DNA from: Cyanidioschyzon merolae
Lineage: Eukaryota
Assembly (NCBI GenBank): GCA_000091205.1
Contig: AP006497.2
DNA: 64,000 nucleotides
Strand: one strand, 5' to 3'
In this document: in pieces, positions 8,421-63,160 of the stretch
Layout of the letters: each line of letters opens with the position of its first letter
Position numbering within the stretch: the first letter of the stretch is position 1
Made by a program: the position numbers and the translations under genes
Notes under the pieces: generated by a model
Told to the model about the DNA's origin: nothing
Seen by the model: the letters and a program-made list of their open reading frames with translations, nothing else
Databases searched by the model: none

Positions 8421-8500
8421 ATTATCTGAGTACTGTCGTATGACTCACCTCAAGGACGAATGCAAGTCCTCTTTGCACTGCGCGGTCAAGAATGTATTCA
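8421..8500 (+). repeat. Roughly 100-bp dispersed repeat, copy I1, abutting the 5' end of TnpB-like copy 1. Its mirror image is at 11587-11666.
   Basis: 'atctgagtactgtcgtatgactcacctcaaggacgaatgcaagtcctctttgcactg..aagaatgtattca' is about 75-85% identical to 40700-40820, 57000-57095 and 63040-63160. Confidence 0.6.
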
Positions 8501-9697
8501 TAGGAAATTCGCCTACGATCTAAACGGTACATCGCAAAGTTAGTTCGGTCGTCTGCAATACACTGTGTAGAACCACGCATTTACACTCAATGGGAGTGGC
8601 CCAGAACAGAGTTGAAAGAATAACCAAGACGCAACTTGGCGCCAGCAAATTTGGCACGCATTGTTTTCCAAGCGACTTCAGTCTTGTGCTGTCACTGGCT
8701 GTTGCCTTAATGAGGTTGATGGTATCGAAACCTCGTATATATATTAGCGCGCTTATTTTGGGAGTCATTGTCGTTGCAGTGGCCCTGCGCAGCTTGTCAA
8801 AGTTCTCCCATTCCACTCTAGTCTCGAGAGGGAACAGAGGGCTAGAGTTACACGCTTTTTATAACGTTTTCTGGAACTCAGGGACGCCACGTATAGCGCA
8901 AGAGCAACTATCCTGGCTCGAATCAAGCGGAATCAAAATCGATGCTCTGCACGTGTTCGCTTTCGGGACTAACCTGTCAGGGTTGGAAAGAATCGAGAAG
9001 TGGACAAGTGCACCAGTCGTATACGAGCAGTTGAGCCCGATCGGGAACGAGGAAGTTACGCTTGCGGCTCTACACAGGTTCTGCACAGTTGCGGAACTGA
9101 AAGGCAAAAGTGTCTTCGTTTTATACTTCCATCCAAAGGGTTCGTTTCATCCGAGCATTCGAAATGAAAAGTATCGACAAGCCGTTGGGCATTATGTGCT
9201 GCGAAAGCCCCAGGGTTGCCTGAGCGCCATGGCGCTTCAATCATGCGACGCTTGTAGTCTCCGCTTCTCAGAGTATCCGCACGCTCATTTTCCTGGGAAT
9301 ATGTGGTGGGCAAACTGTAGTTATATCTCCATGCTGTATGCGCCGGATATTCCGAGAACAGAGCTCAAGTCTGCAAAGCTTCCGGAATATTGCATAGGGC
9401 TCGGTCGGTTTGCTAGTGAACACTGGATTGGTTCGCACCCTCAACTAAGACCATGCGACTGCTTCCCCGTCACTGAGGACGCATTTTACTGGTATGGGTT
9501 CTCGGGTCTCGATGGTGTCCACCGTCTGATGAACAGTACGATGGACTGCAGGCGGGGGCCGCGTCCGAATATAATTGAGATTGCGCGAAAAAAAGGATAC
9601 GATGTCGAGCTTAACCTACGCTGCCGTGAAGTTTCGGCCGCAGGCGACAGACGCGCCTATGGCTTTGAAACTACGTCGAGCTAAGGCTCGCAATGGA
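8424..9697. repeat. Left arm of a perfect inverted repeat (arms 1274 bp, spacer about 692 bp, symmetry centre 10043.5)
   Basis: Every ORF in 8520-9684 has an identical mirror ORF on the opposite strand at coordinate 20087-x. My direct base comparison puts the arm boundaries at 8424/11663 (outer) and 9697/10390 (inner). Confidence 0.85.
8590..9684 (+). CDS. Type II membrane protein of unknown function, possibly a Golgi glycosyltransferase-like luminal domain. Copy 1 of 2.
   Basis: 364-aa ORF with an N-terminal TM anchor 'ISALILGVIVVAVAL' and a Cys-containing globular domain with 'HFPGNMWWANCSY'. An identical ORF is mirrored at 10403-11497. Confidence 0.55.
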   Translation: MGVAQNRVERITKTQLGASKFGTHCFPSDFSLVLSLAVALMRLMVSKPRIYISALILGVIVVAVALRSLSKFSHSTLVSRGNRGLELHAFYNVFWNSGTPRIAQEQLSWLESSGIKIDALHVFAFGTNLSGLERIEKWTSAPVVYEQLSPIGNEEVTLAALHRFCTVAELKGKSVFVLYFHPKGSFHPSIRNEKYRQAVGHYVLRKPQGCLSAMALQSCDACSLRFSEYPHAHFPGNMWWANCSYISMLYAPDIPRTELKSAKLPEYCIGLGRFASEHWIGSHPQLRPCDCFPVTEDAFYWYGFSGLDGVHRLMNSTMDCRRGPRPNIIEIARKKGYDVELNLRCREVSAAGDRRAYGFETTSS

Positions 9698-10389
9698 CAC
9701 GGTATAGAAAAATCAAACCGGTTTTGAAAATTGCGATCCGGTGCGCCGCTCGAATTATTCATCGACATTCGATTTTATGCTCAGTCGGAGTGCCGTTTTA
9801 CTCCTGTATTCTCTAAAACCTTGGTACGCTCGCTACGGGAAGTCTTTAATGCGTTTCTGGCGTGCAAGTCTTATTTCCTGGGGAGTAATTCCATTCCGAC
9901 ATCACTTAGACACACGCCTATTTTGCATCTTCGGATCACTCAAGACATCCACACGGGTCTCGTCCGTTCGCTACGGTGGCCTGCTCCGGTCTTCTTTTAC
10001 TGGAATAGGGCTGTTTTCCTCCATTAAAAATACTTTCCGCATGGATCCTCTGAGATATATATTCAAGGCTTTAAAACCCCACTTGGTAGTTGACAGGTTC
10101 AGTTTATGATACTCTCACTAGCGAGATTTCACACTCGGAAGCTGTTTCCTTCAAAGAGAACACTGGCTGCACCTTACGAGAGTGGGGCTTAGTCGCGCAA
10201 CAGCACTATGATTTGAAGCTCACCAACGTAGGGAAAGGCTGTAGCGCGCACTGTCAGCGCGACATAATTCCAAAACCTTACTCTTTTCGAACGCTTTGCT
10301 GGTTCCGAAAATATGAATTGCCCCATTCGAGTACGATCCCAACAACTGCTTTTGCACTTCAAAATACCTGAAGACGCAACTGCGCCGCA

Positions 10390-11663
10390 TCCATTGCGAG
10401 CCTTAGCTCGACGTAGTTTCAAAGCCATAGGCGCGTCTGTCGCCTGCGGCCGAAACTTCACGGCAGCGTAGGTTAAGCTCGACATCGTATCCTTTTTTTC
10501 GCGCAATCTCAATTATATTCGGACGCGGCCCCCGCCTGCAGTCCATCGTACTGTTCATCAGACGGTGGACACCATCGAGACCCGAGAACCCATACCAGTA
10601 AAATGCGTCCTCAGTGACGGGGAAGCAGTCGCATGGTCTTAGTTGAGGGTGCGAACCAATCCAGTGTTCACTAGCAAACCGACCGAGCCCTATGCAATAT
10701 TCCGGAAGCTTTGCAGACTTGAGCTCTGTTCTCGGAATATCCGGCGCATACAGCATGGAGATATAACTACAGTTTGCCCACCACATATTCCCAGGAAAAT
10801 GAGCGTGCGGATACTCTGAGAAGCGGAGACTACAAGCGTCGCATGATTGAAGCGCCATGGCGCTCAGGCAACCCTGGGGCTTTCGCAGCACATAATGCCC
10901 AACGGCTTGTCGATACTTTTCATTTCGAATGCTCGGATGAAACGAACCCTTTGGATGGAAGTATAAAACGAAGACACTTTTGCCTTTCAGTTCCGCAACT
11001 GTGCAGAACCTGTGTAGAGCCGCAAGCGTAACTTCCTCGTTCCCGATCGGGCTCAACTGCTCGTATACGACTGGTGCACTTGTCCACTTCTCGATTCTTT
11101 CCAACCCTGACAGGTTAGTCCCGAAAGCGAACACGTGCAGAGCATCGATTTTGATTCCGCTTGATTCGAGCCAGGATAGTTGCTCTTGCGCTATACGTGG
11201 CGTCCCTGAGTTCCAGAAAACGTTATAAAAAGCGTGTAACTCTAGCCCTCTGTTCCCTCTCGAGACTAGAGTGGAATGGGAGAACTTTGACAAGCTGCGC
11301 AGGGCCACTGCAACGACAATGACTCCCAAAATAAGCGCGCTAATATATATACGAGGTTTCGATACCATCAACCTCATTAAGGCAACAGCCAGTGACAGCA
11401 CAAGACTGAAGTCGCTTGGAAAACAATGCGTGCCAAATTTGCTGGCGCCAAGTTGCGTCTTGGTTATTCTTTCAACTCTGTTCTGGGCCACTCCCATTGA
11501 GTGTAAATGCGTGGTTCTACACAGTGTATTGCAGACGACCGAACTAACTTTGCGATGTACCGTTTAGATCGTAGGCGAATTTCCTATGAATACATTCTTG
11601 ACCGCGCAGTGCAAAGAGGACTTGCATTCGTCCTTGAGGTGAGTCATACGACAGTACTCAGAT
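10390..11663. repeat. Right arm of the perfect inverted repeat
   Basis: Reverse-complement identity to 8424-9697. Confidence 0.85.
10403..11497 (-). CDS. Type II membrane protein of unknown function, identical copy 2
   Basis: Identical 364-aa translation to 8590-9684, on the opposite strand. Confidence 0.55.
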   Translation of the reverse strand: MGVAQNRVERITKTQLGASKFGTHCFPSDFSLVLSLAVALMRLMVSKPRIYISALILGVIVVAVALRSLSKFSHSTLVSRGNRGLELHAFYNVFWNSGTPRIAQEQLSWLESSGIKIDALHVFAFGTNLSGLERIEKWTSAPVVYEQLSPIGNEEVTLAALHRFCTVAELKGKSVFVLYFHPKGSFHPSIRNEKYRQAVGHYVLRKPQGCLSAMALQSCDACSLRFSEYPHAHFPGNMWWANCSYISMLYAPDIPRTELKSAKLPEYCIGLGRFASEHWIGSHPQLRPCDCFPVTEDAFYWYGFSGLDGVHRLMNSTMDCRRGPRPNIIEIARKKGYDVELNLRCREVSAAGDRRAYGFETTSS

Positions 11664-12957
11664 GGTTGAACAATACTGGAAGAAATAGGGATATGCGTCC
11701 AGCGCAGTAAACCGATATTCTCGAAGACTGCCCGCTGTCAATGCTAGAAAACGACCCGTTGATTACCATACGGAATGCAGAAAGCGACGATAGTAGCCGC
11801 CACGAGTATCCCTGTTTCTCAACAGCGTGTTCGTGTAGTCCTCATAACACCAGGATTCAGTCGCAAAAAAGTCCGATTTACGTCACGGCCATCTTCCACC
11901 GAAATCGCAATGACAGCGTGCACGGAACGCCGCGATCGATATGAAGCAAAGGGATGTCGGTTTGTTTCAGTCGATGAAACTTCTTTGGTACGACACCCTA
12001 GGGGCGTCTATTGGTAATATGCGGAGAGGAAGCCCGTTGTTTGTACGATCGAACTCAAAGAGAATGAAGATATCTTTTTTTCTAGCTTCAATGGATTCAT
12101 TCGGTGGCCTCGGTTTTGCTCGTGGTGATGGCTCGTACAAGAGCACAAATCAATTCGGTGAATCATTGAAGAATTTCCCCTGACGTCTGGTGACGTCCAT
12201 CTATTGAAAAATGTGACATTGCACCATTCCCCTTGGGGGCGAGCTTTTGCCGATTCTATCAGGGAAGAGCTGCTTTTCATTGCTCCGTGCTCTACGTGTT
12301 CCAAACTATTCGAAAGAGTGTTTCCTATCGTGAAACGTAATGATCGCTCCACTGGCCGAGTCGCTGAAGCGTTCAGCGCACGGTGACTCCGGGGTGCATT
12401 CGGTTATTCTTGCGCAAGTGCTTCTCCGTCAGAGAAGGCCCTAACCTAAGGGCATGAGGAAGTGCTTTCATTTTCAAAAATAAAAAATCCAAGGGAAAGT
12501 TATGGAAATGGAACTCAAGTATCCTAGAAGCCCGATGTCGCCGGCAGCGTGAAAAATCGAAAAAATTCTTTCCTCGCTGACCATCGAGCGAAGAAGAGCA
12601 AGATATGAGGAGAAAGAAGAGGGAGATATGAGAGAAAAAGTATTTTCCCGACGGGAAAATCGCTAGACTGTAGTGACACCGAGGGCAAGAGTTCGAGGAC
12701 GCCTTCCACTGGTGTGTTCAAGCAGAGGCAAGAAACGCATGGAGTTCGCGACCCGAGACTTCGACGCCGCCATCAATATTAGGAGATGTGCGGTGCTGAA
12801 GAGGAGACCTGAGGAGCTGACGCGAGCGAACTTTGTGGGGCAGCCCCTCAAGCTCGAAGTGGACACGGAGAAGCTGAAACCGATAGCGAGGGTCGGTCAA
12901 AAAATGGCTCGGAGGCGTCTGCGGATGGGTAGATATATTTATCCTCCATGGTTATGA
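11664..12957 (+). mobile_element. Degraded TnpB/Fanzor-like element, copy 2 (frameshifted)
   Basis: ORF pieces 11741-11944, 11775-12017, 11941-12183, 12204-12386 ('IAPCSTCSKL', CxxC-like) and 12673-12957 ('EFATRDFDAAINIRRCAVLKRRPEELTRANFVGQPLKLEV'). Its 3' end 'cctccatggttatgaa' matches the other copies. Confidence 0.5.
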
Positions 12958-13892
12958 AATGCTTATTGTTTCAGTGACCGTTATGTGTACAATGCCGAGA
13001 ATATCATTGTCGGCTCTTTCTGGCAATGCGTTGCAGTTGAGTCAATCATACTGAACAACTACTACCCGTCGTAAAATAATGGAGAGAGCATATCTTTATC
13101 TTACAAGCAGAATCCAATGGATAGAACGAAAAACTCTAGAATAGGTCGAGCAATGCTGCATCTTTCGTTGCTTCCGAGTTGCTGCGAATGAGCTGTTTGT
13201 CGGCTCTTTGCATCACTGCAGATTCTCTGCAGCCGTCACGCCCGTCTGAGCCGAGTATTGACGTAGAGCAGCTATATTATCGACGAACCAGTCAAGGTTT
13301 TCGGTACTGGAAAATATCTTTTGCTACTTCGAGCGATCGGATGCACTCTGTTTGAAGAGCCTCACAGGTGGCTTTCCAGGATTTTCTTCTGAATGGCTCT
13401 CGGTTTCATTGTAGACTGACGCGTGACCGGACTCTAGCTATCCGAACCAATCGACTCTACGTGGGTATTTCAAACTTCAAATCTAAACTCGAAGAAGCTA
13501 AAAACATGCCAAAGAAAAACGTGACACTTGGTCAGGTCAGCTGAGTACCTGATCCCTTTGAGCGCACAGTTTTCTACAAGACCATCTCCAGAACCCAATT
13601 TTGTTGCTCAAAAAAACCCACTTTTTGGTTAAGAAGCTGCGAGCTTGACTGCAGACTGTATCGACGAACTGAGGAACTCTCACTTGTACAGCATGATAGC
13701 GCACAGCTTTCGATGCGCAGCGCTTTGAGCAGCCTAGAGCCGAGTGGATAGCCAGAAGCATGATGATTGCACGTTGCATCGCGCAATGATATTGGTAAAA
13801 TATTTGCTCTGTCTTTGTTCGTATAGTTTTGTTGTGGTCTAGTTTGTTTAATTCACCTGTATAAGAAAGCGTACGGATAGTTTCCGCAGTGG

Positions 13893-16148
13893 ATGGAAGC
13901 ATACCTCTCAGCACCTTCACGACCGAGTGTGACGCTTTCTGAATTCTCTGGTCGCCGGGTTTGCCAGACGAAACGGAACGATTCTCTTCTGGGCGCTCGG
14001 GGGAGGTTTGCACCGGGCACGTGGGAGCGCGTAGTGCTCGGGCGTCGCGGTGGTTCCCGTACAGTCAGTCGTTTGCCTCAAGTGCGTGCAACAGCTACTG
14101 CTGGGGTATCGCTAGTGAAGCCAAAGCAGACGGGGAACGCGTTCGCTGACCTCTGCATCAACAGCATTCGTTTCCTGGCTGTCGACGCCGTAGAGAAGGC
14201 GAACTCTGGACACCCTGGAGCGCCCATGGGTCAGGCCCCGCTCGCGTTTACTCTTTGGGACAAGTATCTGCGCTTTAACCCCAAGAATCCGAACTGGGTC
14301 AATCGCGATCGTTTTGTGCTAAGCTGTGGTCATGGGTCTATGCTTCAGTATGCTCTGCTTTACCTTTATGGATACGATCAACCAACAATGGACGATATCA
14401 AAACTTTCTGTGAATTTGGTTCTTGCGCTACGAGTCACCCCGAGAACTTTCTTCTTCCTGGCGTTGAAGTGACCACAGGGCCTCTGGGCTCTGGCGTGGC
14501 ACAGGCTGTTGGTCTCGCTATCGCCGAAGCGCACCTCGGAGCAATGTTCAACACCCCAGAGGAGAAGCTGATTGACCATTACACCTACTTCATTATGAGT
14601 GATGGATGCATGCAAGAAGGAGTAGCTGCAGAGGCCGCATCTTTGGCAGGCCATTTGGGACTGGGGAAACTAATCGGGTTTTTCGATGATAACAAGATAA
14701 CTTACGATGGACCAACAGACCTTGCGTTTAGTGAGGATGTCGTATCTAGATTCAAATCGTATAACTGGCAGGTAATTAGCATTGCAGATGGAAACACAGA
14801 CATCGACAACATCTCGAAAGCAATCGAGGAGGCGCAAAAAGATCTGACACGACCATCACTAATCATAGTTCCGACAACAATTGGTTTTGGCTCACCAAAA
14901 CACGCGAACAAAAGGACAGCACATGGAGAACCTTTCGGATCTGACGAAGTCAAGGCAACGCGGGAGAATCTTGGATGGAAATATGCTCCTTTCGAGGTCC
15001 CAGAGGAGGTGCTGAAACATTGTCGCCGCAAGATCCAAGAGGGGGCACGTCTTGAACAGGAATGGAATGAGCTCTTGCAGCGGTACAAGAGTAAGCACCC
15101 AGAACAGGCTGCACTATTCGAGCGGATGGTGATTCGCAAGGAGAAGAGCCCTGGTTGGGAAAAGGCCCTCAAGGATTGTGCGGCAAAGACAGGCTCCATG
15201 GCTACGAGGCAAGTCTCCGGCGCAATGCTCAATGCGCTCGCTGCGGTGATGCCGGAGATCATCGGGGGATCTGCAGACCTGGCCCCTTCGAACAACACGC
15301 TCCTGAAGGGCTTTGGCGATTTCTCTCGTAACAACTACAAAGCCAAGAATATGCGCTTCGGTGTCCGCGAGGCAGCGATGACTGCGATCACCGCGGGCAT
15401 CAAGCTCCACAACACTGGACTGTTTCCCTACTGCGCGACTTTTCTGATATTCACCGATTACGCCCGGGGCATGCTCCGCCTTGCTGCCCTCTCCGAGGCG
15501 GGAATCACGTTCATTACAACGCACGACTCCGTCGCCTTAGGCGAGGATGGCCCCACGCACCAGCCCATCGAGCATCTGGCTAGCCTGCGAGCTATGCCGA
15601 ATGTGTACACGTTCCGTCCGTGCGATGCGAACGAGTGCGCAGCTGGCTATGCGCTCTCGATCCGGCATGATGACAAAGTCGTTCTGTTGGCGCTCACGCG
15701 ACAGAAGACGAACAAGCTCGAGACATCCTCATACGATGGTGCCCTGCGCGGAGCGTACGTGGTTTCGGATAATAGCCCTGCGGGCAAGCACCCGGATGTG
15801 ATCCTTATCGGAACAGGCTCCGAGGTGGACGTCGTCGTGGAGGCCGCCGATCAACTACGAACTAGCGATGCTTTGAATGTGCGCGTGGTGTCGATGCCCT
15901 GCATGGAGCTCTTTGAGGACCAGGATGCAGCTTATCAAGAGTCTGTGCTTCCTGCTGCCGTGCCTCGCAGCCGGAGGGTCGTATGTGAGGCTGCCTCAAG
16001 CTTCGGCTGGTCGAAGTATGCGGATCACTTTGTGTGCATCGATCGCTTCGGAGCGTCCGGCAAAGGGCCTGACCTGATGAAGTACTTTGGGATCACGCCG
16101 TCGAACGTAGCGAAGAAGGCGCGAGAGGCTGCAGGAAAAGGCGTTTGA
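13893..16148 (+). CDS. Transketolase-like protein, copy A, with substitutions at catalytic and cofactor residues in aa 145-345 and an N-terminal extension
   Basis: 751-aa ORF, identical to copy B outside aa 145-345. Within that patch 'SMLQYALLYLYGY' has Tyr where His is conserved, 'IMSDGCMQEG' replaces the GDG motif with SDG, and 'ITYDGPTD' has Pro where His is conserved. Confidence 0.8.
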   Translation: MEAYLSAPSRPSVTLSEFSGRRVCQTKRNDSLLGARGRFAPGTWERVVLGRRGGSRTVSRLPQVRATATAGVSLVKPKQTGNAFADLCINSIRFLAVDAVEKANSGHPGAPMGQAPLAFTLWDKYLRFNPKNPNWVNRDRFVLSCGHGSMLQYALLYLYGYDQPTMDDIKTFCEFGSCATSHPENFLLPGVEVTTGPLGSGVAQAVGLAIAEAHLGAMFNTPEEKLIDHYTYFIMSDGCMQEGVAAEAASLAGHLGLGKLIGFFDDNKITYDGPTDLAFSEDVVSRFKSYNWQVISIADGNTDIDNISKAIEEAQKDLTRPSLIIVPTTIGFGSPKHANKRTAHGEPFGSDEVKATRENLGWKYAPFEVPEEVLKHCRRKIQEGARLEQEWNELLQRYKSKHPEQAALFERMVIRKEKSPGWEKALKDCAAKTGSMATRQVSGAMLNALAAVMPEIIGGSADLAPSNNTLLKGFGDFSRNNYKAKNMRFGVREAAMTAITAGIKLHNTGLFPYCATFLIFTDYARGMLRLAALSEAGITFITTHDSVALGEDGPTHQPIEHLASLRAMPNVYTFRPCDANECAAGYALSIRHDDKVVLLALTRQKTNKLETSSYDGALRGAYVVSDNSPAGKHPDVILIGTGSEVDVVVEAADQLRTSDALNVRVVSMPCMELFEDQDAAYQESVLPAAVPRSRRVVCEAASSFGWSKYADHFVCIDRFGASGKGPDLMKYFGITPSNVAKKAREAAGKGV

Positions 16149-16447
16149 GGACGCCGCGGAAGCAGCGGTTCTGTGCCGGGCAAAGATTTTCAAGCGGCGT
16201 TTGCTGCGGCAACGCTCTGCGGAATGGGAACGCTTTGGAAGAGAGTATTCTTGCAGGGTCTAAACACGGCTGTAGTATCCCGCGTGATCACGTTGGGCCT
16301 CATCGTTCTCGTTCGCAAATGCGTTCCGTAGAACGTGCTGTTCTCTAGGGTAACAACGGCTGGGTACGCGGCAGCTGCATCGCCTCTGGGCTGGAGCGGG
16401 TCCTGCGGTTTTGAACCGTTGTCCACCTCGAAGGTTTTCTCCCGCCG

Positions 16448-17641: not shown

Positions 17642-17646
17642 GCAGT

Positions 17647-17685
<39 letters not shown>

Positions 17686-17687: not shown

Positions 17688-18714
17688 GCTCGACTCCAGA
17701 GCAAGCGCTCACTGAAGAAACGCCACCGGGTAGGGCATCTATGCAGCGAACCATAATCCTCAGAGCGAAGTCTGGAGACTGGTGTGTGGAACACGGTGGA
17801 TCTGGTGCGGAATGATATCTGCTTCCGTAAATGCCGATTGGAATCGAGACATTTAGGGATCCCCTATAAGATTCAAGGATCCTGCGCTACTGAAGAACAA
17901 CTTGCGGGGACTCACCGAGGATCCATCGTCGTGTCCGAACGATCGCGGCGAAGGATGCAAACGCATGATCTCCCCAGTCACGCATAATGCCACGGACGGA
18001 AGGTGCATAAGATATTTCGATTCCAGTTCTATTCGTGCACGCATGAGCTCCCTAGTCACGCATAATGCCACGGAGTAAAAGTACACAACGTATCTAGATT
18101 CCGGTTTACTTCTTGCGCTTCTTGTTCATACTGTTGCAAGGCGAAATCGTCGGTGTTCGCAGTTATTCACGGGTATAACGCCGAAATTTGCGATACCCTG
18201 ACGCTTACCGGTGGGCGGGAGCCCTCCTGTGGACACACTCGGCGATACTCGGTGCATGGGCTGTAGATCACAGGCGGACGATCGTTAAAGGTCGCTGTGA
18301 TTTTAGTGTTGCCCATACCTCTACGCGTGGAAGTCATCCCCAGAGGGCGGCTCTCGAGCGCGCTGCCCTCGGTGACTCGGAGCGGCGCATGGTCTCCGCA
18401 CTGGTAGCGATGATGCAGGAGCATCACTCGAGCGCAACCTGTGTACGCCCCTCTCGGGCACCAGTCTGCGTAAATCTACCAGAAAAATATTCGATCGTCT
18501 CTGCCGTAGGTGTCTTGCTCGACAGTGCGGTCAGCGCGGTGCATTGGATGCGCGGAGCTGCCCCTGGGATGGTCCGCTTGGTTTCGGGTTGTGCGCGGGT
18601 CTTCCAGTGACCCCTCGCGTCCACAGAAGCATCAGGCCGGTGTCACGTAGAGCGCTCCAGTTGCTGCGAGCCTGTGGATCCTGCACTAGCCGAGCACCGA
18701 CTGGGCGCTCAAGG

Positions 18715-21036
18715 TTACAGCGGGGATCGTCCAGTGTCTGTATCACGGTGGTAGTCGAAGGGCTCATTGAAAACGCATCCAACTTGACCCCGTAGATATC
18801 TCTCCATGAGATCCCTGGTTGAAGCGTTGAACTCTTCCGAAATGGGGCGGCCGAAGTAGCGGCTTTCGTTCAGCTGCTTTCGGACACGCTTTGCGAGCAC
18901 CTTTCCGAGTTCGACGCCCCACTGGTCGAATGAATTGATGTCCCAGATGAAACCCTGGACTGCCGTGCGATGCTCATAGAGCGCGAGCAACTGGCCAGTG
19001 GCGTACGGATCCAGCCTCTGCAGCAGCAGCGTCAGACTCGGCCTGTTGCCAGTCGTCACGAGATGCGGAATCAGCCATTCGGGGCGGCCCTCTGCACGAC
19101 ACTCCGCCGCTGTTTTGCCGTACGCCAGAGCATCTGGCTGGGCGAAAAAGTTCGCCATGAGCTCGTCTGCATTGCTGACCGGCTCACCCTCGATGCACAG
19201 CGGGTACTGGGACTCGATGAAGCCAATAAAATCGCAGGGTACCGTCTGCCCCATATGCAGCAGCTGGAAAAACGAGTGCTGGCCGTTGGTGCCGGGCTCT
19301 CCAAAGTCGATCTCACCGACCGCGTAGTCGACGTCGTCGCCGCGCAGCGTCACGTGCTTACCGTTGCTCTCCATGTCAACCTGCTGGATATGAGCGGGGA
19401 ACTTGAGAAGCGCCTCTGCGTAAGGATGCAGCGCCCGGCTCTTGTAGCCGAGAAAAGACAGGTTCCAGACGCCGAGAAGCCCCATGATCACCGGCAAGTT
19501 CCCCGCCAGCGGACTAGCAACGTCGTAAAAGTTCGCATCAACAGAGCGCGCGCCCTCTAGAAATCGCAGGAACGTGGGGAAGCCGTACTGAATCGAGAGC
19601 GGCAGCGCTCCGACCGCAGAGCACACGGAATACCTACCCCCGACCCAGTCCCAAAACTCAAAAGTGTTCCGCGGGTCGATCCCGAACTTCTCCACCATCG
19701 GCACGTTGCTGCTGCAGGCAACCATGTGGAGCCGCACGACCTCATCCGAGCGCCCCATTTCGGACCAGAGCCATTCGCGCATCGCCCGTGCATTCAGAAG
19801 CGTCTCCGCGGTTGTGAACGACTTGCTCACGATCACTATCAGCGTCTCCTCCGCCGACAGATCCTGCGTGCAGCGCTTGATATCCACAGGATCCACGTTG
19901 CTGAGAAAATGAAGGTGCCGCCCCCGCGCCGCCTCAAACGCCTCCGGATCCGTCCGAAACGCCTCGTGCACAAAGTCTGGCCCCAGATACGAGCCGCCAA
20001 TCCCCACAGCGATGACGCTGCGAAGCGGCTTCCCCGTGGCGCCGCGATGCTCCCCGCTGCGCACCCGCTCGCTGAACTCACGCACGTGATCGAGCACCCG
20101 CCACACGTCACGAACAACGTCCGTACCGTCGACAACAAGGCTTGCGTTCCGCTCCGCGCGAAGCGCCGTATGCAGCACGGCGCGCCGCTCGGTCACGTTT
20201 ATGTGCGCGCCGGACTGCATCGCGCGGATCTTATCCACCAAACGCGCACGACGCGCTAGCGCGAAAAGTAGCTCAATCGTATCCTTCGTCACCCGCTGCC
20301 GCGAGTAGTCGAGGTAGATCCCGTCATACTCAGCGCGCAGAGAACGCACGCGATCGACGTCCTGCATCAGCTCCCGCAGGTGCAAACGATCGATCTCAGA
20401 TGCATGCTCCACCAGCCGTCTCCACTCGGCAGTCTCCGAGATGAGGACGTAGTCGGTCGGCACCGGCAGTGGTGGCGGCGTTTCCGAAGGAAGCCGCCTC
20501 CCAACGGTGTAGCTCCCGCGAACGTCCCCCGCTGTGCAACGCGGAAACGCACGTCTCCGCAAAAGCCCAGCAGACCCGTGGTGCGGGTACAGCGCCCTGG
20601 ATCGGCGCGATCCAGCTACCCCACCCCGAAGCGGCCACCCAGGCACGACAAAGGCGCTCATCAGGCGAACACTCTCCCAGCAAGCAAAGACCAGGTGCAC
20701 ACTATTGCGCACTGCACCGCGCAGCGAGCTTTCAACTGGCGTCCGCTTCTTGGGCGATTCGCCTCCGGCACGCGCGGCAGGCGGGTGCAGCTGCGAGGGC
20801 GCGGCCAACGGATCAGCGACTCGTTGATAGACTTTCACCTGAATTGCGTTCCATACGCAGGTGCGTGCCATCAACTGCTCTTTCGCCGCTGATGAGAGAC
20901 GCGTTCCGCGTGCGTGCCTTAGCAGAAATAAAAAATCTAGGGGAAGGTATGGGCATGGAAGTCGGAGATCAAAGGCGGTCGCCATGGCCGGCTTCTTGAG
21001 GGAAAGGACGAAAGAAATCCTGGTCTCGCCGACCAT
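18715..21036 (-). CDS. Glucose-6-phosphate isomerase, copy A. The ORF start is probably too far upstream.
   Basis: PGI core from about aa 195 ('[51 protein letters not shown]...'). The first ~35 aa of the ORF (20930-21036) are antisense to a TnpB-like element fragment. The true start is likely an internal Met (aa 56 or 126), followed by an Arg/Ser-rich presequence-like stretch. Confidence 0.85.
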
Positions 21037-21413
21037 GGAGCGAAGAAGCGCAAGTGACGAAGAAGAAGAGAGGCACAGGGGCGGCAGGCGAGAAGAGGGG
21101 TTCGCCCGATGAGACTGCGACGAGACTGTACTGGGAGAGGGGGCACGAGATCGAGGAACTCTCGCAATATCGAGTTCATGCAGAGGAAATATAGAGATGG
21201 AGTTCGTGACCTGGGACCTCTATGCCGCCATCAATATCAGGGAATGTGCGGTTCTGGAGACGAGGCCCGCAGAGCCGACGCGATCCAGCATTGTGGGGCA
21301 GCCCCTGAGGCTTGAAGTGCACAAGGCGAAGCTGCAGCCGATGGCAGGGGCTGGTCAGGAACTGCTGGGAGGCGTCTGGGACTGGATATATATTTACCTA
21401 CCATGGTTGTGGA
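20930..21413 (+). mobile_element. 3' fragment of the TnpB/Fanzor-like element, copy 3A. Its terminus is exactly the right boundary of the 7.5-kb repeat.
   Basis: DNA homology to 12470-12957 ('agaaataaaaaatctaggggaaggtatgg...', 'ctcgccgaccatggagcgaagaagcgcaag'). The tail ORF reads '[36 protein letters not shown]' and the end is 'tatatatttacctaccatggttgtgga'. Confidence 0.55.
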
Positions 21414-24400
21414 TTATTGCGCGTGAGGCAGCGCGATATTTCTTCCACCTCGTTGATTGGGCGCTTCTCCCAGCGCGCATACATTCACACCGACGCATTC
21501 GATCACGCACCATTCTCTTCCTCGCCACCCTTCGTTCCCGGTACAATACTTTTCACAAAACGTGTAGATTATTACGAAATTCATTGCGGCACTTTGCACT
21601 GTCGCGGGCATATCGTACAGGACTTTCTGCTGAGTGCGATAACGCCTCCAAGGCTTCTAAGACATCATTGCGTTTGGCCTGCACGTTTCTGGATTATTCG
21701 CCCAGTCATTACTCTCTGCTGAGATAAAGATGAGACGTATGTTAGTAGGTCTTACAGCTGTTGGTTGAAGTCCGATGGTTCACCAACGATTCCTCCAGTG
21801 CGTCGTCGTTTACCACAGGCAGGCGGACTCCTCCTCGAGCCTCAACGAAGCGCTGGTGTATGGAGTCTCTTTCCCTGGCTTCAGGCCGACGCACTGTGCA
21901 TAGCGGAGAAGATTCACGAGGACATGCTTCTGCATTGCTTGATGTTCCACCGTGTCTTACCTCATCTGAGCAGAGGAGCGTTTGGGCTCTCAGTGGGCCG
22001 TGTACCGTGCAAGACGCCCGCGTTTGATGATTTTGGATGCAGCTACGTCATTGGTCTCGAAGGAGGACGCTACGTCTTGTCGTGATGGTGCGAATTCTTT
22101 GTTCCTTCTTTATTTCTTTCCCATACGCATCTATCTTTGCTTTCATTGACTTGTCGCTCCTCCTCCCGTTTTTGCGTTCCTTCGAAGCTTCGGGCCAAGA
22201 GCGCACAATTTCTTCCATGCACTCCAGGCAGTCGATAAGCTCCTCTTCTGCTTTGATGCTCTTCGTGTTGTGCATCAGAAGCATCTACGCCGCCTGTACG
22301 GAGGCGCCCCACTCAATCAAATTGGAAAAAAGCCTCATATCGAGGTGCTGGTAGGAGCGACTTAAAGATTCGATTGGAAAAGTAGAAAATTTCTTCCCTT
22401 CAGGGACACGGTACAGCACCCCAAATGCAGAAGCATCATCCCTTTCTTTTGCTGGTTACTCACAGGCGACAGCTGAATCATTTCTTTGGCGTATTCGTCT
22501 CGGAAAAGCATTCGACGGAGGTTTACAATGCTCCCTCTCTTTCCAGTCGATGGGCTTCGACGAAACGCCGATAACGAAGAGCTCCTTCATGTCGCCCGGA
22601 CTTGAGACCGACTCGTGGTTTTTTCGTTTCAACATCAACGAATACATCACCCGAGGGTGGAAGTGAACGCTGACGTGTTTCAGGCTCGCCGTGCATACTT
22701 TTCGTCCCAAGTGCCTCTTTGTTTTTCTGGAACGCTTTGAGTCTCGCAACGAGTGAAATCCTCGGCATCCGCAAATTTGTTCAGCTGAAAGACCGAAGAG
22801 CGTTCGGCGTCGATGAAAGCTCAGAGCGAGAGAGGAGTACTCGGCATGTACTCTGGAAGAGTGAGGGCATAGAAGGCGGTCGGTGTCAATAGTCTCTCAA
22901 AGAAATTCATCACTTTCACAAGGTCCTTGAAGTGAGGAATGTCCGCAGTCTTGTGCGAAAGGCAAGCATGTTGCTGGAGCTTGCTGAAAGAAATGCATAT
23001 TTACATGCGCAGGATGTGTGCTCCGGCAAGAGCAAGCACGCTCAGATGAATCCCTTTATGAGTGTAGCGTCGCAAAGTAGCGACACGCAAAGCTCCTCGT
23101 TCGCGTAGCTGCCCGAGCGTTGAGGTTCGTACAGCAAGGCGATCCGTCGAAAGGTGGCGACGTTCTCTGGGACGGGTATGCACCTCTGTTCGAAATGCTC
23201 TAGGATTTCTTTTTAGTCCTTAAACAGCTGTTTCCCTCTCTCACATGGTGTGGTTGGGCTGTGTGCCTCTGTTGACGAACCAGCAATTTATTGTCATTCT
23301 CAATTCATCTTTCAACTTTTTCCCTCACGTCTCTTCAGAAATCCGCCAACCTAAAACTTGGAAACCTTGTGCGAAACAAACCCTGGCAGGCCGGGCGGTT
23401 TCAATTGCGGCCTCTAAAGCGACGAGCACCAGTTCGTATTGAGGACAATCCAAGGTATTGACATGTGCATCCGCTTCCCCAGGTCAGTGCCTCGCGGAAC
23501 CGGAAGACGTTCTTCATTTGGCGAAACTATGGAAAATAAGTTCGAATGCATAAAATGATCCATCCTCTGGTCTCTACTCATTACCAACGGAAAAGTATTT
23601 GTGGAACGCGATTTTTCCACGAAGAAGAATATACTGGGGCGAAAATCCGGGTTTGAGGACGAGTTGAGAAATTTCGATATTTGCAAGCTCCCTTCTTGTG
23701 AAGATCTGATGCGCTCTTCGTGGAAAGCGATCGCTGGGATGACTGACGTCCGAGTCTTAGATACTTTTCTCTCCAAACAGAGGAGGTCGGAGCCTCTGAG
23801 AGCTTCTCTCGATTTTGGTACTATGCTGCTATCGAATGCCGTTTCATCGATGGCAGGACGGAGTAGGGGACCCTCCTTTTGAACAGAATCTATTGTATTA
23901 CCCTAGATGGTCAGTTACGTTCTAGAGTGATCTTGTCAACGAGTCTCCAACGAGCAGCCTCGAGTAATTTTTGTCGTCAACCCAGCAGTAAGCGAGACCT
24001 GCTGCGCCCACGACTTGTCTTGAAACATAAAGATAGAAAACTTGAAACATGCATGATTTGAGCACCCAACTCGTAAGGAAGGAGGAAGAAAGGAGGCTTA
24101 TAAATACAAAATCGATCATGATACCGGGTATTTTACAATTGCTTGTTTGACAGCGTCGAGAATCAGCTTGATTTCAGTGACGCATGGAACTCCAGCGGCA
24201 GACTGTCGAAAGAGCCGCTCAGAAATGCCAACCGAGTGTTCTAAAATTAAGTATGAAACCATATGCCCTTATGGCTGATAGTCGAACGTTGACGCTGTAC
24301 ATCTAGAAAGAGTGCATAAAAACGAAAGACAAGAGAAGACCGAGCAGTTCATTATTCCATTGTGTTCGGCATTGGCGGAGGCACAAGCATTCGCTCCACA

Positions 24401-40670: not shown

Positions 40671-40699
40671 GAGCATGGCGTTTTCGCGCAGAACGAATG

Positions 40700-40820
40700 C
40701 ATGCTTTTTTCAGTGCTCCTCACCCATCTGAGTACTGCAATATGACTGATCTGACGGAGAAATGCAGCCTTAGTTGCAATATTCAGGAAAAAATATCCTA
40801 CGGGCAATTCGTCTTCGATC
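40700..40820 (+). repeat. Roughly 100-bp dispersed repeat, copy I4, abutting the 5' end of TnpB-like copy 4
   Basis: 'catctgagtactgcaatatgactgatctgacggagaaatgcagccttagttgcaatattcaggaaaaaatatcctacgggcaattcgtcttc' matches I1, I2 and I3. Confidence 0.6.
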
Positions 40821-54337: not shown

Positions 54338-56999
54338 GCGTCTCGAGACCTGTTGAGCTTCGTTATGGCGAGATTCATGCCTGCAAATATATGTTAGAAA
54401 TGTTTCTAACGAAATATGCGCAGTTGAAGCCATAAGCTTGAGTTTTGACTGGAGCCAGAAGATAGAAACAAAGGCGCTGGTTACCGCAGCAAGCCTGAAT
54501 ATGCATTTGTGACCTGATTTTTCTGAGCTGTATTCTCTAGGTGCGCTGCGTCCGTATGCGATTTTTCAGCTGCGACATTTCCGGCGATGGGCGCGGAGTG
54601 TGTGTGACCGAGTTAAAAATCAGCGTGGCAACAGATTCCGTTCGAAACTTGTAGAAGGAAGAAACTCATTGTGAAGAATCGGTAGAGGAACAGCAGGGGG
54701 GTGGATGGCGCGTATGAGCTTTGAAACGGTGTGCGATGCAGCTCCCAAACAAGCACAATACTTAATCCAATCGGCTGGATCGCTTGGCTTCACAAGCTTT
54801 CGCAAAAAGCTTGGAATGGACACTGAACAGGATTCACCAAATCGTGGTGGACGAAAGCAGCCTCGTGTTCCAAACACAAATGTTCGCAGTTTTAAGGTAA
54901 CATGTCGTACATGTAAGCAGAATTCTATGCCGAATGATAAACTCGACACCTGTAGGAAAATGGCAGGGCACGTAAGCAGTCTCATATGCGTAAGGAGAGG
55001 GTTGTCACTTTGAAGAAATAGATTGTTTGACGAAAGCAGGTTTGGGTGCTATATGCTAGGCTTGAAATTTTAAGGAACTAGATCGTGGACAGATTCTGTC
55101 TTGTTCACCAAGGGGGAAGCGGAACATTTTGAGGAAAGAGATAAGATCGTCAAGACGAAACAGATGTCTCGCTGTTGGACTCGCACGATGAAAGCATACC
55201 AAGCATTGGTTTCAAAGTGCGAAACAAAACATCAGATGAGTCGCAAGCGTGGAATGCAATACCTTTGAATATGTTGTAATCTGCAAAGGGCTTCCATTCC
55301 CATGGCAGAAAAAATGGACCAGGCCCTTCGACACGAGCGCACACGCTAAAGTCTGGTTCGCTTCTCAACGTTGCCAACATCAGCTGTTGTGGATTTGTTC
55401 TGCGACTGCTTCCCTCATCTCTCTGATCTCTCCAGCTTTCAATACGCCGGTCGCTCCTGTCGCCAAGGTCCATTGTCACACGTCGACAGATGTTAATGGC
55501 AGCACGCAAGTATCGATGCCGCTGCCTACGGCTATTGTGGATGCATTTCACTCGCAGATCGTAGTTGTGATGGTACTTCGCTTGCCATTTTTGTCTTCTT
55601 CGTATACCGTCGCGATGGGTTTTCGTGACGGAGGCATATGACTGTAATCGGCGTGGTCCCGTGTACTCACCAAACCCTCTCCGGGCGCCCGGCTACGGTG
55701 CGTGAAGGCTTGCCTCATCGCTCAGTTCATGATCTTGCTGGATATAGAAGGCTCTCCTTGATGCCCTCCATTACAGCTGCGTCCGGCGCCTTACCCTAAA
55801 CTCGCGAACTTCTTCTGTTCGATCTCCTTTGCGCGTACTCTGTCCGCTGCACGTGGAAGCGCACGCTAGTCCTTTCGACGGGGGATTTGCGGAACGCGGT
55901 ATTGTATACGATTGAACCAGAACTAGAACGAAACTCCGGACTGGGGTGAAAGTCGAAAAATGTCGATCCGAGTAAGCGCCTCGCATGCAAATAGGTGACA
56001 CAGTCTGAATGAGGTGCAATCGCTGAAGTTCGAGTCCGCAACTGTTTGCCATGCAAACGGAAGCGACGAGAGCCCTTGAGAGCATATTCTATGAGCGGTA
56101 TCATGCCGATGTCGAATGCCATGTATTCTATGGCCACAAAATGATGAGGTGTTATGCTCGAATGGGGTCGATCATCAGACGTGAGAAGCTCAGTGCTGCC
56201 CTGGGCATGAGCTTATGGAGACCTGGCACCAGGAAGTCGTCTGTTCTCTATTCGTCGTCAGGCCAGCAGTGCAAATCGCTGCGCCCACGAGTTGGCTTGA
56301 GAAAGAAAGGTCGAAAACTTGAGGAACGCATGATTTGAGCATGCAACAAGTAACGGAAGGAGAAGGTTTGAGTCTTGCGTGAATGTTTTGGATCATAATA
56401 TGGTTTACTATTCGAACCCCTATTCAAAGGCGTAGGAAATCATCATGATTCTATTGACGCACCAAATTCCAGCGGCAAGTTGTGAGTGCTCAACTCCGAA
56501 ATGATCGAGCGTTTCAAAATCATCTATGACTCCATACGCCCGTATTCCTTCACTTCAAATCTTGAGGCTGAGCAACTAAAATAAGTACGGAAAATATCGA
56601 ATAGCTGAACAGAATGAGCAATTTAATATTCCATTTAAAAGCAACAAGCTGTACTTGACAAGGTCTCACGCACGAAGTAATTGAAGGGTTCTTCCAGATC
56701 TGGATAAAATGGCACTCACATCAATCGTTAGGTCGAACACCACGTCTCATTTTGCTCCGCCGATGGGTTCATGGCGAACAACACCAGTACTCTCCGTAGA
56801 AGGTGCTCTGTCGTGTCACAGTAAACACTCACATTAGGCAAGGGGATGCTACGCTATTCGAGCGACGATGTGATCTACCAGCGGAAGTCGATGTGCCCAG
56901 TGCCACCGTTGAAGTTAGACAGATGGGAGGCTAAACTTCTATTCGAAGCCTCGATTCGAGCGTATAACTTGCCAAAGTGTCGTTCTGGTCTTCCATCTC

Positions 57000-57095
57000 T
57001 ATTTTTTTCCTGGGTACTGCGGAAAGACTGACCTGGGAGAGGAATGCAGTCCCCCTAGTACTGTCCAGGAAAGAATATATCCTGCAGGCAATTCT
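57000..57095 (+). repeat. Roughly 100-bp dispersed repeat, copy I2 (solo)
   Basis: 'cctgggtactgcggaaagactgacctgggagaggaatgcagtccccctagtactgtccaggaaagaatatatcctgcaggcaattcttc'. Confidence 0.55.
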
Positions 57096-57471
57096 TCAAA
57101 GATCTATGGGCTACATCGCACACTGTTTTCGATCTCCTGCTCGATACCGTATCGGAGATGGAACAAGAGTAAGTTGGAAGACCATAAGACCGCTTTCTTT
57201 CGAGTGCTTCCTAGCAACGACATGTCGAAGCGTGATCTGGCGCGCACCAGCGCTGTGATCCTGCCAGCGAATGAGCGCGCATCGGCGCGGGTGTGCTGTC
57301 GCGGAGCGCGTCGTCCGTCGACTGCTTCCGCAGATCATTTTCCGGGGGTACACCTGGGCACGAGCTTCGAGACTCCGGTGCCATACGTGCAACACGGAAT
57401 CCTAGAAGAAAAGCGTCTGATATCCTAGGATAGGGCTGCGTATCGCTGTAAACGATTCTGTCAATCTTTCC

Positions 57472-61871: not shown

Positions 61872-63039
61872 CGCTTACCCGTAAACCTTTGGGTCAGACG
61901 TTCAAGCGCCCGCACTCACGATGCCTGCACGACGCGGGGGGCGCAAACCAGGTTCCTGCCGTCTACCTCCTGATGCCCTGTCTTCAACAAAGTTTCCTAC
62001 CTTGGCACAACGTAGGTGCTCTCTCCGATCCTTAAGTCGGTGCAGTGGACGTATCAGCACCGGTTGGTCGCGGATGGAGCTGGACCCCAAACCGTGCGGA
62101 AACACGCCGGAGCACGTCGAGTCTGAGGGATATTCGGGCGTGACTTGACCAACCGCAAATTGATCCAAAAAGCGCAAACTCTCACACACCGCGGAATTCC
62201 AAGAATTTTGCATGAAAGCACTTAATCGCACGCCTAGCGAAACTGGTGCGGGCGACACCAAAGCGCGCTTTTTCGCGCCCAGTCGCGTGCCGCAAAGACA
62301 CGCAGTGAGGGGCAACACGCATGCGCATGTCCGCTGACTACGTGTCCGCATTGTGGCGCGCGCTTTTTCCCGCTGCTTCCCGAGCGTGTCGATTCATTCG
62401 CTTCACGAACTTGGAAAAATTGGCAGAAAAGAACCATTACCTGGCAACCCGATAACAATTTGCTTCCCCCTATACTATAAGCGTTCATAAGAGAAAGTTT
62501 CCGTATTTTAGAAAGATCATGGTCCAGACGGACAGTTCCGCGAGCCGAACGAGTCTGCCGGGTAAGTGCTCCGTGTCGCCAATGGCGAAGGCTGTAACGA
62601 GACACGGGCAGCCCGTCCGCAAGCTGGTTTATTCTGGGACTAGGGTAGTTAGGCTGCGTCTGGGAATCGCGTTTAGCGCGGTGGCCTCCTAGCATATCGT
62701 TTCGCGCTGCCGCAGGTGATACGGGTGTCTATGCAGCTTGCACGCTACCAGAATGCTGATAAACCTGACCCCATGTCTGGTGAACTACCTGTCGAGCTGA
62801 CGCTCTCAGTGGTATGACAAAGCCATACTGTCTCTGTGCCGCATCCGCGCCTACGGTAAAAGTGCTATGGTGGGGTACTCACGATAGGCACTTGGCGCTC
62901 GATAGAGCGTATGAAACGTTCAGTACATCTGAAAGGAAGCATAAGTAATGCAGCTTGGAAATGGGAGGAACGGCGAATGTGTTGCCGTGTGCTGATATCA
63001 AGCCCACAGTCGCGCATCTCTGCCGTGTGTAAACTTTTT

Positions 63040-63160
63040 GTCAAATTATAATCGTCTTTGTTTCATCCTTCTCCAAATATCTGAGTACTGTGGGATCACT
63101 CAAAATTGAAGGAGGAATGTAGTCCCCCTTGCACTGTTCCGTAAAGAATATATTCGTACA
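63040..63160 (+). repeat. Roughly 100-bp dispersed repeat, copy I3 (solo)
   Basis: 'aaatatctgagtactgtgggatcactcaaaattgaaggaggaatgtagtcccccttgcactgttccgtaaagaatatattcgtacacgc'. Confidence 0.55.

Follow-up and report, generated by a model that had tools for sequence, protein, structure and literature searches.

The repeat family and its copies

The window analysed here, a stretch of 64,000 nucleotides from chromosome 15 of Cyanidioschyzon merolae 10D, holds four independent copies of a dispersed repeat and one mirror copy, which lie among remnants of transposase and Fanzor1 nuclease genes. The copies of the repeat are the following:

8385-8622, minus strand: c1, with a leader at 8533-8622, a start codon at 8532-8530 and about 49 N-terminal transposase codons to 8385
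11465-11702, plus strand: c2, mirror of c1 at 97% identity, with its ATG at 11555
40685-40900, minus strand: c3, with the start codon decayed to ATA at 40833-40831
56975-57184, minus strand: c4, a solo 5' stump, with its ATG at 57116-57114 and about 36 codons open in one frame
63048-63282, minus strand: c5, a solo 5' stump, with its ATG at 63190-63188, frameshifted

The initial annotation had placed a repeat at these five positions, and BLASTN and nhmmer bore this out far beyond chance: a profile of the repeat found exactly five copies and no other match in the 64 kb. Pairwise BLASTN within the window gave 72% identity over 179 nt for c1-c5 (E 1e-19), 71% over 182 nt for c3-c4 (E 7e-16), 74% over 104 nt for c4-c5 (E 1.5e-11) and 68% over 165 nt for c1-c3. 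The mutual identity of the independent copies is therefore 68-74%, not the 70-85% first given, and the unit measures 210-240 bp in each copy instead of about 100 bp, the earlier coordinates having covered its inner part only. Significance requires the full unit: the short seed ATCTGAGTACTG by itself gave 7 matches in the window versus 3.8 expected, which is not significant. Copies c1 and c2 lie in an inverted duplication (8305-9702 / 10385-11782), and the mirror copy stems from inverted duplication or gene conversion spanning c1 and the neighbouring host gene. The single orientation ascribed to all copies holds inside the window except for this mirror, but not outside it: a further copy (L032), some 6 kb beyond its right edge, has the opposite orientation.

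The repeat as the start of a transposase gene

Read on the minus strand, each copy of the repeat presents a leader of 65-90 nt followed by an ATG and about 48 codons, which give a transposase N-terminus, MYPLDRRRIA...LQVSHTTVLRWL. Judged from its coding content, the repeat is the leader and the N-terminal, putative helix-turn-helix codons of a transposase of the IS630/Tc1-mariner type (Pfam DDE_3). The conserved block GATCTAWAGGGTACAT is the reverse complement of ATG TAC CCT xTA GAT (MYPLD), and the reverse complement of ATCTGAGTACTGT codes for TVLRW. Intact relatives found in other assemblies, Logan SRR34294542 and ERR9973196 among them, are 293-300 amino acids long and start with MYPLDRRK.A.H...LQVSHTTVSRWL; the repeat-encoded peptide aligns with their N-termini residue for residue. 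By BLASTX, c1 matched residues 1-45 of the intact transposase P0059 (46% identity, E 1.9e-9) and c4 matched residues 1-36 of P0057/P0058 (39-42% identity, E 4.5e-5). When an HMM of the intact N-termini was run on the six frames of the window, the only significant matches were repeat copies, with i-Evalues of 9e-10 (c2, at 11555-11686), 1e-8, 4e-5 and 3e-3.

In the elements numbered 1, 2 and 4, which contain c1, c2 and c3, the repeat runs on for about 790 bp more into a frameshifted transposase pseudogene:

7599-8532, minus strand: DDE_3 (IS630/Tc1-mariner) transposase pseudogene of element copy 1, its first ~148 nt being the coding part of c1
11555-12489, plus strand: DDE_3 transposase pseudogene of element copy 2, beginning at the position of the c2 ATG
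39900-40833, minus strand: DDE_3 transposase pseudogene of element copy 4, beginning at the decayed start codon of c3

The repeat had been described as abutting the 5' ends of element copies 1 and 4; its 5' position is correct, but instead of merely adjoining the element it is the start of the pseudogene. A single fragment, 7640-7882 on the minus strand, already matched Pfam DDE_3 (31.2 bits, E 2e-7; cut-off 28.6), and a frame-repaired consensus of 280 amino acids, built from element copies 1, 2 and 4, reached 48.9 bits (E 8e-13). Alignments with the intact transposases covered 99-100% of this consensus (E 1e-32 to 1e-37). It retains the motifs DET, LNN/LDN and NPIE, whereas single copies have NPIV or NPIK and frameshifts; the intact relatives P0057-P0061 have DETSF, LLDN and NPIE. 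The likeness to IS630/Tc1 elements of the DD34E type comprises the DDE_3 match, a putative helix-turn-helix ending in TV.RWL and, in the intact relatives, a spacing of 34 residues from the second D to the E. The MYPLDRR... subfamily differs in having no curated name in the libraries searched and in matching HTH_Tnp_IS630 below the Pfam cut-off (18.9 bits versus 21.3, E 1.6e-3). Every C. merolae copy of the transposase seen is a pseudogene, and we infer that the transposon was active in the past and that its remains are now without function.

Fanzor1 remnants and the two-gene layout

Directly 3' of each pseudogene, on the same strand, lies a remnant of a Fanzor1 gene, and one more remnant stands apart:

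7121-7594, minus strand: Fanzor1 (CMe-1) remnant of element copy 1, internally deleted, matching CMe-1A positions 898-969 and 2849-2998
12460-12960, plus strand: Fanzor1 remnant of element copy 2, matching CMe-1A 869-969 and 2840-3084 at 77-79% identity
39420-39929, minus strand: Fanzor1 remnant of element copy 4, matching CMe-1A 869-930 and 2889-3089
21000-21430, plus strand: isolated Fanzor1 remnant without the repeat, with a duplicate at 35300-35730 produced by a 14.3-kb tandem duplication

CMe-1A is a Fanzor1 family of C. merolae with about 150 copies, which Bao & Jurka left unclassified; it was described without TIRs and with TSDs undetermined, and its consensus, which we took from their Additional file 2, has no transposase gene (PMC3627910). 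The nuclease remnants of element copies 1, 2 and 4 are 70-79% identical to it at positions 869-969 and 2840-3089, and the remnant peptides DREVDPPGGPSSPTAGKKRK and NRDFNAAINTRQC resemble MEKEVEDPGGPVSPAAGKKRK and NRDFNAAINIRRC of CMe-1. In element copy 1 about 20 N-terminal and about 80 C-terminal codons are kept, the latter with RDFNAAIN. About 1.9 kb of the Fanzor1 ORF is missing from the window elements, which leaves no complete RuvC-like ORF in them, and Pfam found no match in the raw ORF fragments of the Fanzor-like tail, whose homology was seen with the CMe-1A consensus. In the window elements, the DDE_3 gene stands in place of CMe-1A positions 1-784. The repeat and its pseudogene share their strand with the nuclease remnant and are not antisense to it as first annotated. 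The idea that the repeat forms the left end of the TnpB-like element was largely right, in that it is the 5' end of a composite element with a Fanzor1 remnant as its 3' half, but the coding content and the intervening transposase pseudogene had been missed.

The same order of genes is found in intact form elsewhere. In the relatives L037 and L038, on two contigs, the transposase gene is followed after 41-76 bp by a Fanzor1 homologue in the same orientation, which matches CMe-1 by BLASTP (32% over 541 amino acids, E 2.5e-81; 26% over 370 amino acids, E 7e-17). This two-gene layout is that of elements such as PUl-1 of Pythium ultimum and PGv-1, in which a mariner-like DDE transposase of about 300 amino acids is followed by Fanzor1 on the same strand; Tc1/mariner-type Fanzor1 elements code for both proteins and have a TA TSD on either side (PMC3627910). 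With the 'Mariner' transposase of PUl-1, the consensus transposase shares 27% identity over 264 amino acids (E 2e-12). Unlike PUl-1, which has 24-bp TIRs, the C. merolae copies are pseudogenes with Fanzor1 mostly deleted, and neither TIRs nor confirmed TA duplications were found in them.

Scanning metagenomes with a pattern specific to the repeat gave 24 stretches, which reduce to the window loci and at least five more; as a census from metagenome contigs, this is a lower bound. All the additional loci have the repeat, a DDE_3 pseudogene and a C-terminal Fanzor1 remnant, and keep the same 5' boundary.

Given the observed homology, coding content, gene order, common 5' boundary and structure of the copies, the repeat is very probably what remains of the 5' end of a C. 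merolae DNA transposon that had two genes and has since decayed. In its ancestral form the element would have carried a DDE_3 (DD34E-type) transposase gene and, behind it in the same direction, a Fanzor1 gene belonging to the CMe-1 family; it would have moved by cut and paste. Shortened forms of about 1.45 kb, from which most of the Fanzor1 ORF had been lost, would then have spread to at least 10 loci and decayed through frameshifts and stop codons to 68-82% identity; element copies 1, 2 and 4 of the window would be fossils of these shortened forms. Copies c4 and c5 would be 5' stumps of the element, the remainder of the gene having been displaced at c5 by a TE-N2_CMe / CMe-1A fragment.

Element termini and solo copies

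Nine loci have in common a sharp 5' boundary, (TA)TG-GTCTTTCAAC. A TA dinucleotide lies 3-4 nt outside GTCTTTCAAC in five of the nine and within 5 nt in seven. As the 3' junction is fuzzy, this 5' TA is no more than suggestive of the target-site duplication expected for Tc1/mariner, and the termini of the transposon are likewise putative. To search for TIRs, nine loci were aligned at their 5' ends and seven copies, 20-30% decayed, at their 3' ends, and the inverted 5' terminus was sought by fuzzy matching up to 330 nt from the 3' anchor. This yielded no TIR, and inverted GTCTTTCAAC was absent at or near the 3' ends of the seven copies. As a separate observation, when the 3' end of the CMe-1A consensus, TTTTGAAAGGCG, is inverted, 8 of 10 core positions match the 5' terminus, which in our own reading is the sole hint of a TIR.

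The solo copies c4 and c5 had been proposed as left-end remnants, and 5' stumps of the composite element that have lost the rest of the gene are indeed what they are. The 63 kb copy, c5, is not entirely solo, since its inner end adjoins the 5' end of another fragment:

62311-63043, minus strand: 5' fragment of TE-N2_CMe / CMe-1A, consensus positions 3-744

This fragment of about 730 bp matched by BLASTN at 76% over 544 nt (E 3e-106), with a local alignment score of 621 versus 46 +/- 8 for shuffles, and c5 ends where it does because the fragment cuts the repeat there. Consensus element positions 37-260 align with c5 at 80% identity. The inner flank of c4 gave no match to the transposase gene. 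We considered for c4 the same junction with the 5' end of CMe-1A and dropped it, the flank scoring 48 against CMe-1A 1-900 versus 41 +/- 7 for shuffles. The inner ends of c4 and c5 lie within about 20 nt of each other, which is not well explained by simple random truncation; a recent duplication of one into the other was ruled out, as they are 74% identical and differ in a 23-nt leader insertion, present in c5 and c1 and absent from c4.

These near-coincident inner ends, in two copies without the rest of the transposase gene, are what would be expected if the repeat were an independent short non-autonomous element (MITE- or SINE-like), inserted beside or captured by Fanzor elements, with c4 and c5 as complete copies; the sharp outer boundary of all copies and the TA a few bases outside it in five to seven of nine loci would also fit. 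Such an origin, part of which the initial annotation had raised, is nonetheless very improbable. The inner end has no inverted partner, and the solo copies, only two among at least 10 loci, still code for the transposase N-terminus from the ATG (36-49 codons in the unit), whereas all other loci recovered have the full gene. Moreover, the inner end of c5 is accounted for by the TE-N2 / CMe-1A fragment, and c4 and c5 belong to different sublineages, without and with the leader insertion. According to the P-MITE survey, every plant examined has MITEs but C. merolae, which likewise speaks against it (PMC3964958).

Conservation of the repeat and the neighbouring host genes

Reading the repeat as the 5' end of a transposon also accounts for its conservation, which is strongest in the minus-strand codons rather than in the outer portion closest to host genes. 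A promoter or leader module had been suggested, and a 5' leader or bidirectional promoter used by the plus-strand host ORFs at 8590, 57472 and 63536 was considered here; three copies are indeed followed by a plus-strand ORF at a distance of 0-270 bp, and the ATG annotated for CMO119C/CMO120C even falls inside the c1/c2 leader. The outer part, for its part, probably served the transposon's own gene as promoter and leader, or 5' UTR. We regard a host function as very improbable: the repeat is conserved because its minus strand is coding, the three downstream genes are unrelated, and c3 is without any ORF for 1.5 kb. CMO119C is one of the C. merolae 10D proteins to which ORFs of the window are identical. 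Its metagenome orthologues have 324 amino acids, a length that fits translation from Met41, which lies downstream of the repeat, in which case the annotated start would be an artefact. In compact genomes transposons persist chiefly in intergenic, promoter-proximal DNA.

Least probable of all is a small RNA gene, for instance the guide (omega) RNA of the Fanzor nuclease, to which the non-random conservation beside a Fanzor remnant and negative folding z-scores (-3.4 for the minus strand of c4, -2.2 for that of c1) might have pointed: guide RNAs of Fanzor and TnpB reportedly (Saito et al. 2023; Karvelis et al. 2021) come from the nuclease gene's 3' end together with the right end of the transposon, whereas the repeat stands at the other end and precedes another gene, and its conservation is explained by coding. 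A structured RNA was also rejected on its own terms, Rfam having no family above the gathering threshold in the whole window (at the relaxed threshold of E<=1, applied to c5 only, a single match at E=0.73 was not relevant), the RNAalifold consensus fold being weak (-9.5 kcal/mol, covariation term -0.6) and the MFE z-scores against dinucleotide shuffles disagreeing between copies (-3.4 to +1.3).

Possible origin of CMe-1A and implications

The transposon origin of the repeat bears on CMe-1A as well. In its consensus, the stretch shortly before the Fanzor1 ATG (906), positions 785-862, shows homology to the leader of the repeat, with a score of 52 versus 28 +/- 3 for shuffles (49 versus 26 +/- 3 for c5). 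A leader of this kind upstream of the Fanzor1 ORF suggests, as a modest new point, that CMe-1A arose from a mariner-type two-gene element. On a fuller scenario our opinion is evenly balanced: CMe-1A would descend from the IS630/Tc1-mariner two-gene transposon described above through a clean deletion of the transposase ORF, which would have left the leader, with its TAT-G/A-GT boundary, at 785-862 as promoter and leader of Fanzor1, the first ~784 bp (TE-N2-like) having been acquired later. Were this scenario true, the orphan Fanzor family would be mariner-derived and would once have been mobilised in trans by the DDE_3 transposase.

For the window itself, a candidate small-RNA or promoter module can be struck off, and the repeat becomes transposon debris. 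These results refine known biology and do not introduce a new kind of system. The Fanzor1 lineage of C. merolae can now probably be placed in the Tc1/mariner-IS630 superfamily and gains a gene order for its ancestor, and the intact relatives having both transposase and Fanzor1 offer material for work on the cooperation between a DDE transposase and an RNA-guided nuclease.

Extent and distribution of the repeat

Sequence related to the repeat of about 100 bp described in the initial annotation was found at all five places (c1 to c5), but the unit had been drawn too short, the homology being longer than reported. Searched with nhmmer, a profile of the four independent copies recovered these four and the mirror copy c2, with no other match below E=1 in the window. 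By pairwise BLASTN, the independent copies are 68-74% identical over 104-182 nt (E 3e-7 to 1e-19). Nine loci have a sharp outer boundary in common, GTCTTTCAAC on the minus strand.

Copies of the repeat and associated elements (window coordinates unless a contig is named)
8385-8622 (-): c1, from boundary alignment and mapping
11465-11702 (+): c2, mirror of c1 in the 97% inverted duplication
40685-40900 (-): c3, from boundary alignment and mapping
56975-57184 (-): c4, solo copy
63048-63282 (-): c5, solo copy
62311-63043 (-): TE-N2_CMe / CMe-1A 5' fragment, 76% identical to consensus positions 3-744
L032 10273-11565, opposite orientation: composite X5 (repeat, DDE_3 pseudogene and Fanzor1 C-terminal remnant), outside the window, past position 64000 and about 6.1 kb from c5

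A scan of metagenome sequences for a pattern specific to the repeat, with 21 fixed bases, gave 24 stretches, which were annotated with the repeat profile, a 1.05-kb consensus and CMe-1A (the published Fanzor1 consensus), and their flanks compared. These stretches reduce to the window loci, the L007-type and L009-type loci also recovered via pseudogene ORFs, and three further loci (X1, X2, X5); this census is a lower bound because an exact-pattern scan misses diverged copies. All copies found outside the window are full composites. X5, in contig L032, lies some 6 kb past the right edge of the window and in opposite orientation, which makes three repeat copies in a region of about 13 kb that surrounds the CPOX-MCM genes.

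The repeat as the start of a transposase gene

Copies of the adjoining TnpB-like element (7121-8385, 11702-12960 and 39420-40685) are 68-75% identical over about 1.3-1.5 kb. A minus-strand ORF fragment at 7640-7882 passed the Pfam DDE_3 threshold, and three-frame translation revealed IS630/Tc1 motifs dispersed across frames (SVDETNF; LDNMTLHHS...LELLFTPSHCPRFNPI). The frame-repaired consensus of 280 aa scored 48.9 bits against DDE_3 (E 8e-13), with a weak match to HTH_Tnp_IS630. Intact transposases of 293-300 aa from a 5.8-billion-protein collection align with 99-100% of its length (E 1e-32 to 1e-37; 33-36% identity). The N-terminus of these relatives reads MYPLDRRK.A.H.Y..F.SLRKTA..LQVSHTTVSRWLKNP.

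On the minus strand, every repeat copy translates into M-Y-P/R-L/I-D-R-R-R-I-A ... Q-V-S-H-T-T-V-L-R-W-L. The most conserved blocks of the initial description thus turn out to be codons: the reverse complement of GATCTAWAGGGTACAT reads ATG TAC CCT xTA GAT, and that of ATCTGAGTACTGT encodes TVLRW. As an independent check, an HMM built from only the first 48 residues of the intact transposases was run against all six frames of the window, with significant matches at 11555-11686(+), 8532-8398(-), 57116-57009(-) and 40774-40706(-). In BLASTX, c1 matches residues 1-45 of the intact transposase at 46% identity (E 2e-9); for the solo copy c4 the match covers residues 1-36, at 39-42% identity (E 4.5e-5), and c5 keeps MYPLD in a frame disrupted by frameshifts. 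The repeat therefore consists of a 65-90 nt leader and the first ~48 codons of the transposase gene. The proposal that it forms the left end of the TnpB-like element largely stands, but not the size, strand relationship and content first given for it.

Association with Fanzor1

CMe-1A is the one Fanzor1 family described in C. merolae (3,169-bp consensus, about 150 copies); it was reported to lack TIRs, with its TSDs undetermined and its class unknown, and the 635 bp at its 5' end are the same as TE-N2_CMe, present in about 70 copies (Bao & Jurka 2013, PMC3627910). Compared with this consensus (Additional file 2 of the same article), the composites carrying c1, c2 and c3 match only positions 869-969, which comprise 37 bp before the Fanzor1 ATG and about 20 codons, and about 2840-3089, which encode C-terminal residues including RDFNAAIN. 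The matching sequence immediately follows the DDE_3 pseudogene on the same strand, so that the element is ordered as leader, transposase, internally deleted Fanzor1 and 3' end. Isolated Fanzor1 C-terminal pieces occur at 21197-21306 and 35497-35606. Two deletion classes recur, one joining the transposase gene to CMe-1A at about position 2737, the other keeping CMe-1A 881-968 and about 2840/2905-3084; their recurrence suggests that derivatives of roughly 1.45 kb spread after the Fanzor1 deletion.

In two contigs with intact transposase relatives, a large ORF 41-76 bp downstream on the same strand is a CMe-1 homologue, 32% identical over 541 aa (E 2.5e-81) in one contig and 26% identical over 370 aa (E 7e-17) in the other; the transposase plus Fanzor1 layout is ancestral rather than a local accident. 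These contigs, L037 (Logan SRR34294542) and L038 (Logan ERR9973196), hold apparently intact pairs of both genes, possibly active relatives of the fossil copies in C. merolae; the Fanzor-like ORF of L037 (at least 868 aa) runs past the contig end. The consensus transposase also resembles the 'Mariner' transposase of PUl-1, a Pythium Fanzor1 element (27% over 264 aa, E 2e-12), whose class encodes both proteins and is flanked by TA duplications (Bao & Jurka 2013, PMC3627910).

Termini and solo copies

A TA lies 3-4 nt outside GTCTTTCAAC in five of nine loci and within 5 nt in seven of nine. Because conservation on the 3' side fades about 35-45 nt past CMe-1A position 3090 and a search for an inverted copy of the 5' terminus found none, no TIRs or TSDs could be assigned to the element, as in the literature on CMe-1A. 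The repeat leader is homologous to CMe-1A 785-862, ending 43 nt upstream of the Fanzor1 ATG. The consensus scored 52 against CMe-1A 1-868 (shuffles 28 +/- 3, maximum 39), and the c5 leader, compared with both strands of the whole CMe-1A, was best at 785-862 (49; shuffles 26 +/- 3, maximum 34); the c1 and c3 leaders match best at the same place, not individually significantly. CMe-1A also has, immediately ahead of its Fanzor1 ATG, sequence that matches the last part of the composites' transposase region. The simplest reading, drawn mainly from one copy and the consensus, is that CMe-1A would be the two-gene element minus its transposase ORF.

In both solo copies the homology ends inwards about 145 nt after the ATG, the c4 end lying at most about 20 nt from the corresponding c5 point. 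In c5, CMe-1A 3-744 (TE-N2 and about 100 bp) starts there on the same strand, with an alignment score of 621 (shuffles 46 +/- 8); a 153-aa ORF in this fragment (62234-62695) is probably spurious. The inner flank of c4 matched neither CMe-1A nor the transposase gene. The two belong to different sublineages, since a 23-nt leader insertion is common to c5 and c1 and absent from c4. We read both as 5' stumps, which does not account for their near-coincident break points.

Genomic setting and alternative explanations

Five long ORFs in the window exactly match annotated C. merolae 10D proteins (CMO119C/CMO120C, transketolase, ABCG transporter, coproporphyrinogen oxidase, MCM helicase), and hot-spring metagenome contigs contain the same loci. 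Judged from the CMO locus tags, the window would belong to chromosome 15. Gene density is high and introns are few. C. merolae is known for unusual tRNA gene structures, and the one tRNA gene here, with an intron (89 nt, 1612-1700 (-)), scored 53.9 bits in Rfam and received no isotype from ARAGORN.

An inverted duplication (8305-9702 / 10385-11782; 1,398 bp, 97% identical) spans both the repeat (c1/c2) and the paired host genes CMO119C/CMO120C. Transposon sequence just beyond it (7164-8211 versus 11877-12921) is only 72-77% identical, as if an older inverted duplication had recently undergone gene conversion or homogenisation in its inner part. A host promoter function for the repeat would fit the annotated ATG of CMO119C/CMO120C (8590/11497), which falls within the leader. 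However, their first ~17 annotated codons are antisense transposon sequence, and this start is probably an annotation artefact, since metagenome orthologues have 324 aa (364 minus 40), fitting a start at Met41; moreover, the plus-strand neighbours are unrelated genes and c3 has none nearby, so that this function is not supported.

Other duplications are present. A tandem duplication of 14.3 kb (13.9-28.2 kb and 28.2-42.5 kb; e.g. 13899-14198 = 28199-28498, spacing 14,300) contains transketolase, a 400-aa ORF and glucose-6-phosphate isomerase. Its two transketolase copies are identical at either end but diverge centrally, in a block of residues ~145-330, a pattern suggestive of a mosaic or of partial conversion, and both duplicates carry a tandem pair of 78-nt units, 78% identical to each other (17961-18116 and 32261-32416). 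A second dispersed repeat family (400-670 bp, 63-81% identity; 302-816, 23687-24361 and 56251-56635 (+), 41228-41715 (-)) is unrelated to CMe-1A or the transposase element; two members sit at most 300-400 bp from c3 and c4.

A small RNA gene is not supported either: at the gathering threshold Rfam found only the tRNA in the window (c5 resembled a Salmonella sRNA at E 0.73), the RNAalifold consensus had an energy of -9.5 kcal/mol and a covariation contribution of -0.6, and MFE z-scores (-3.4 to +1.3) disagreed between copies and strands. The expected place of a Fanzor guide RNA is the element end opposite to the repeat. A MITE is unsupported, since no TIRs were found, coding remnants are present and, according to the P-MITE survey, C. 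merolae is the only one of 41 species surveyed without MITEs (PMC3964958).

The repeat forms the 5' end of a mariner-type fossil transposon that carries Fanzor1, and is a real but ordinary feature. What is new is limited to setting the C. merolae Fanzor1 lineage in a Tc1/mariner-IS630 context.
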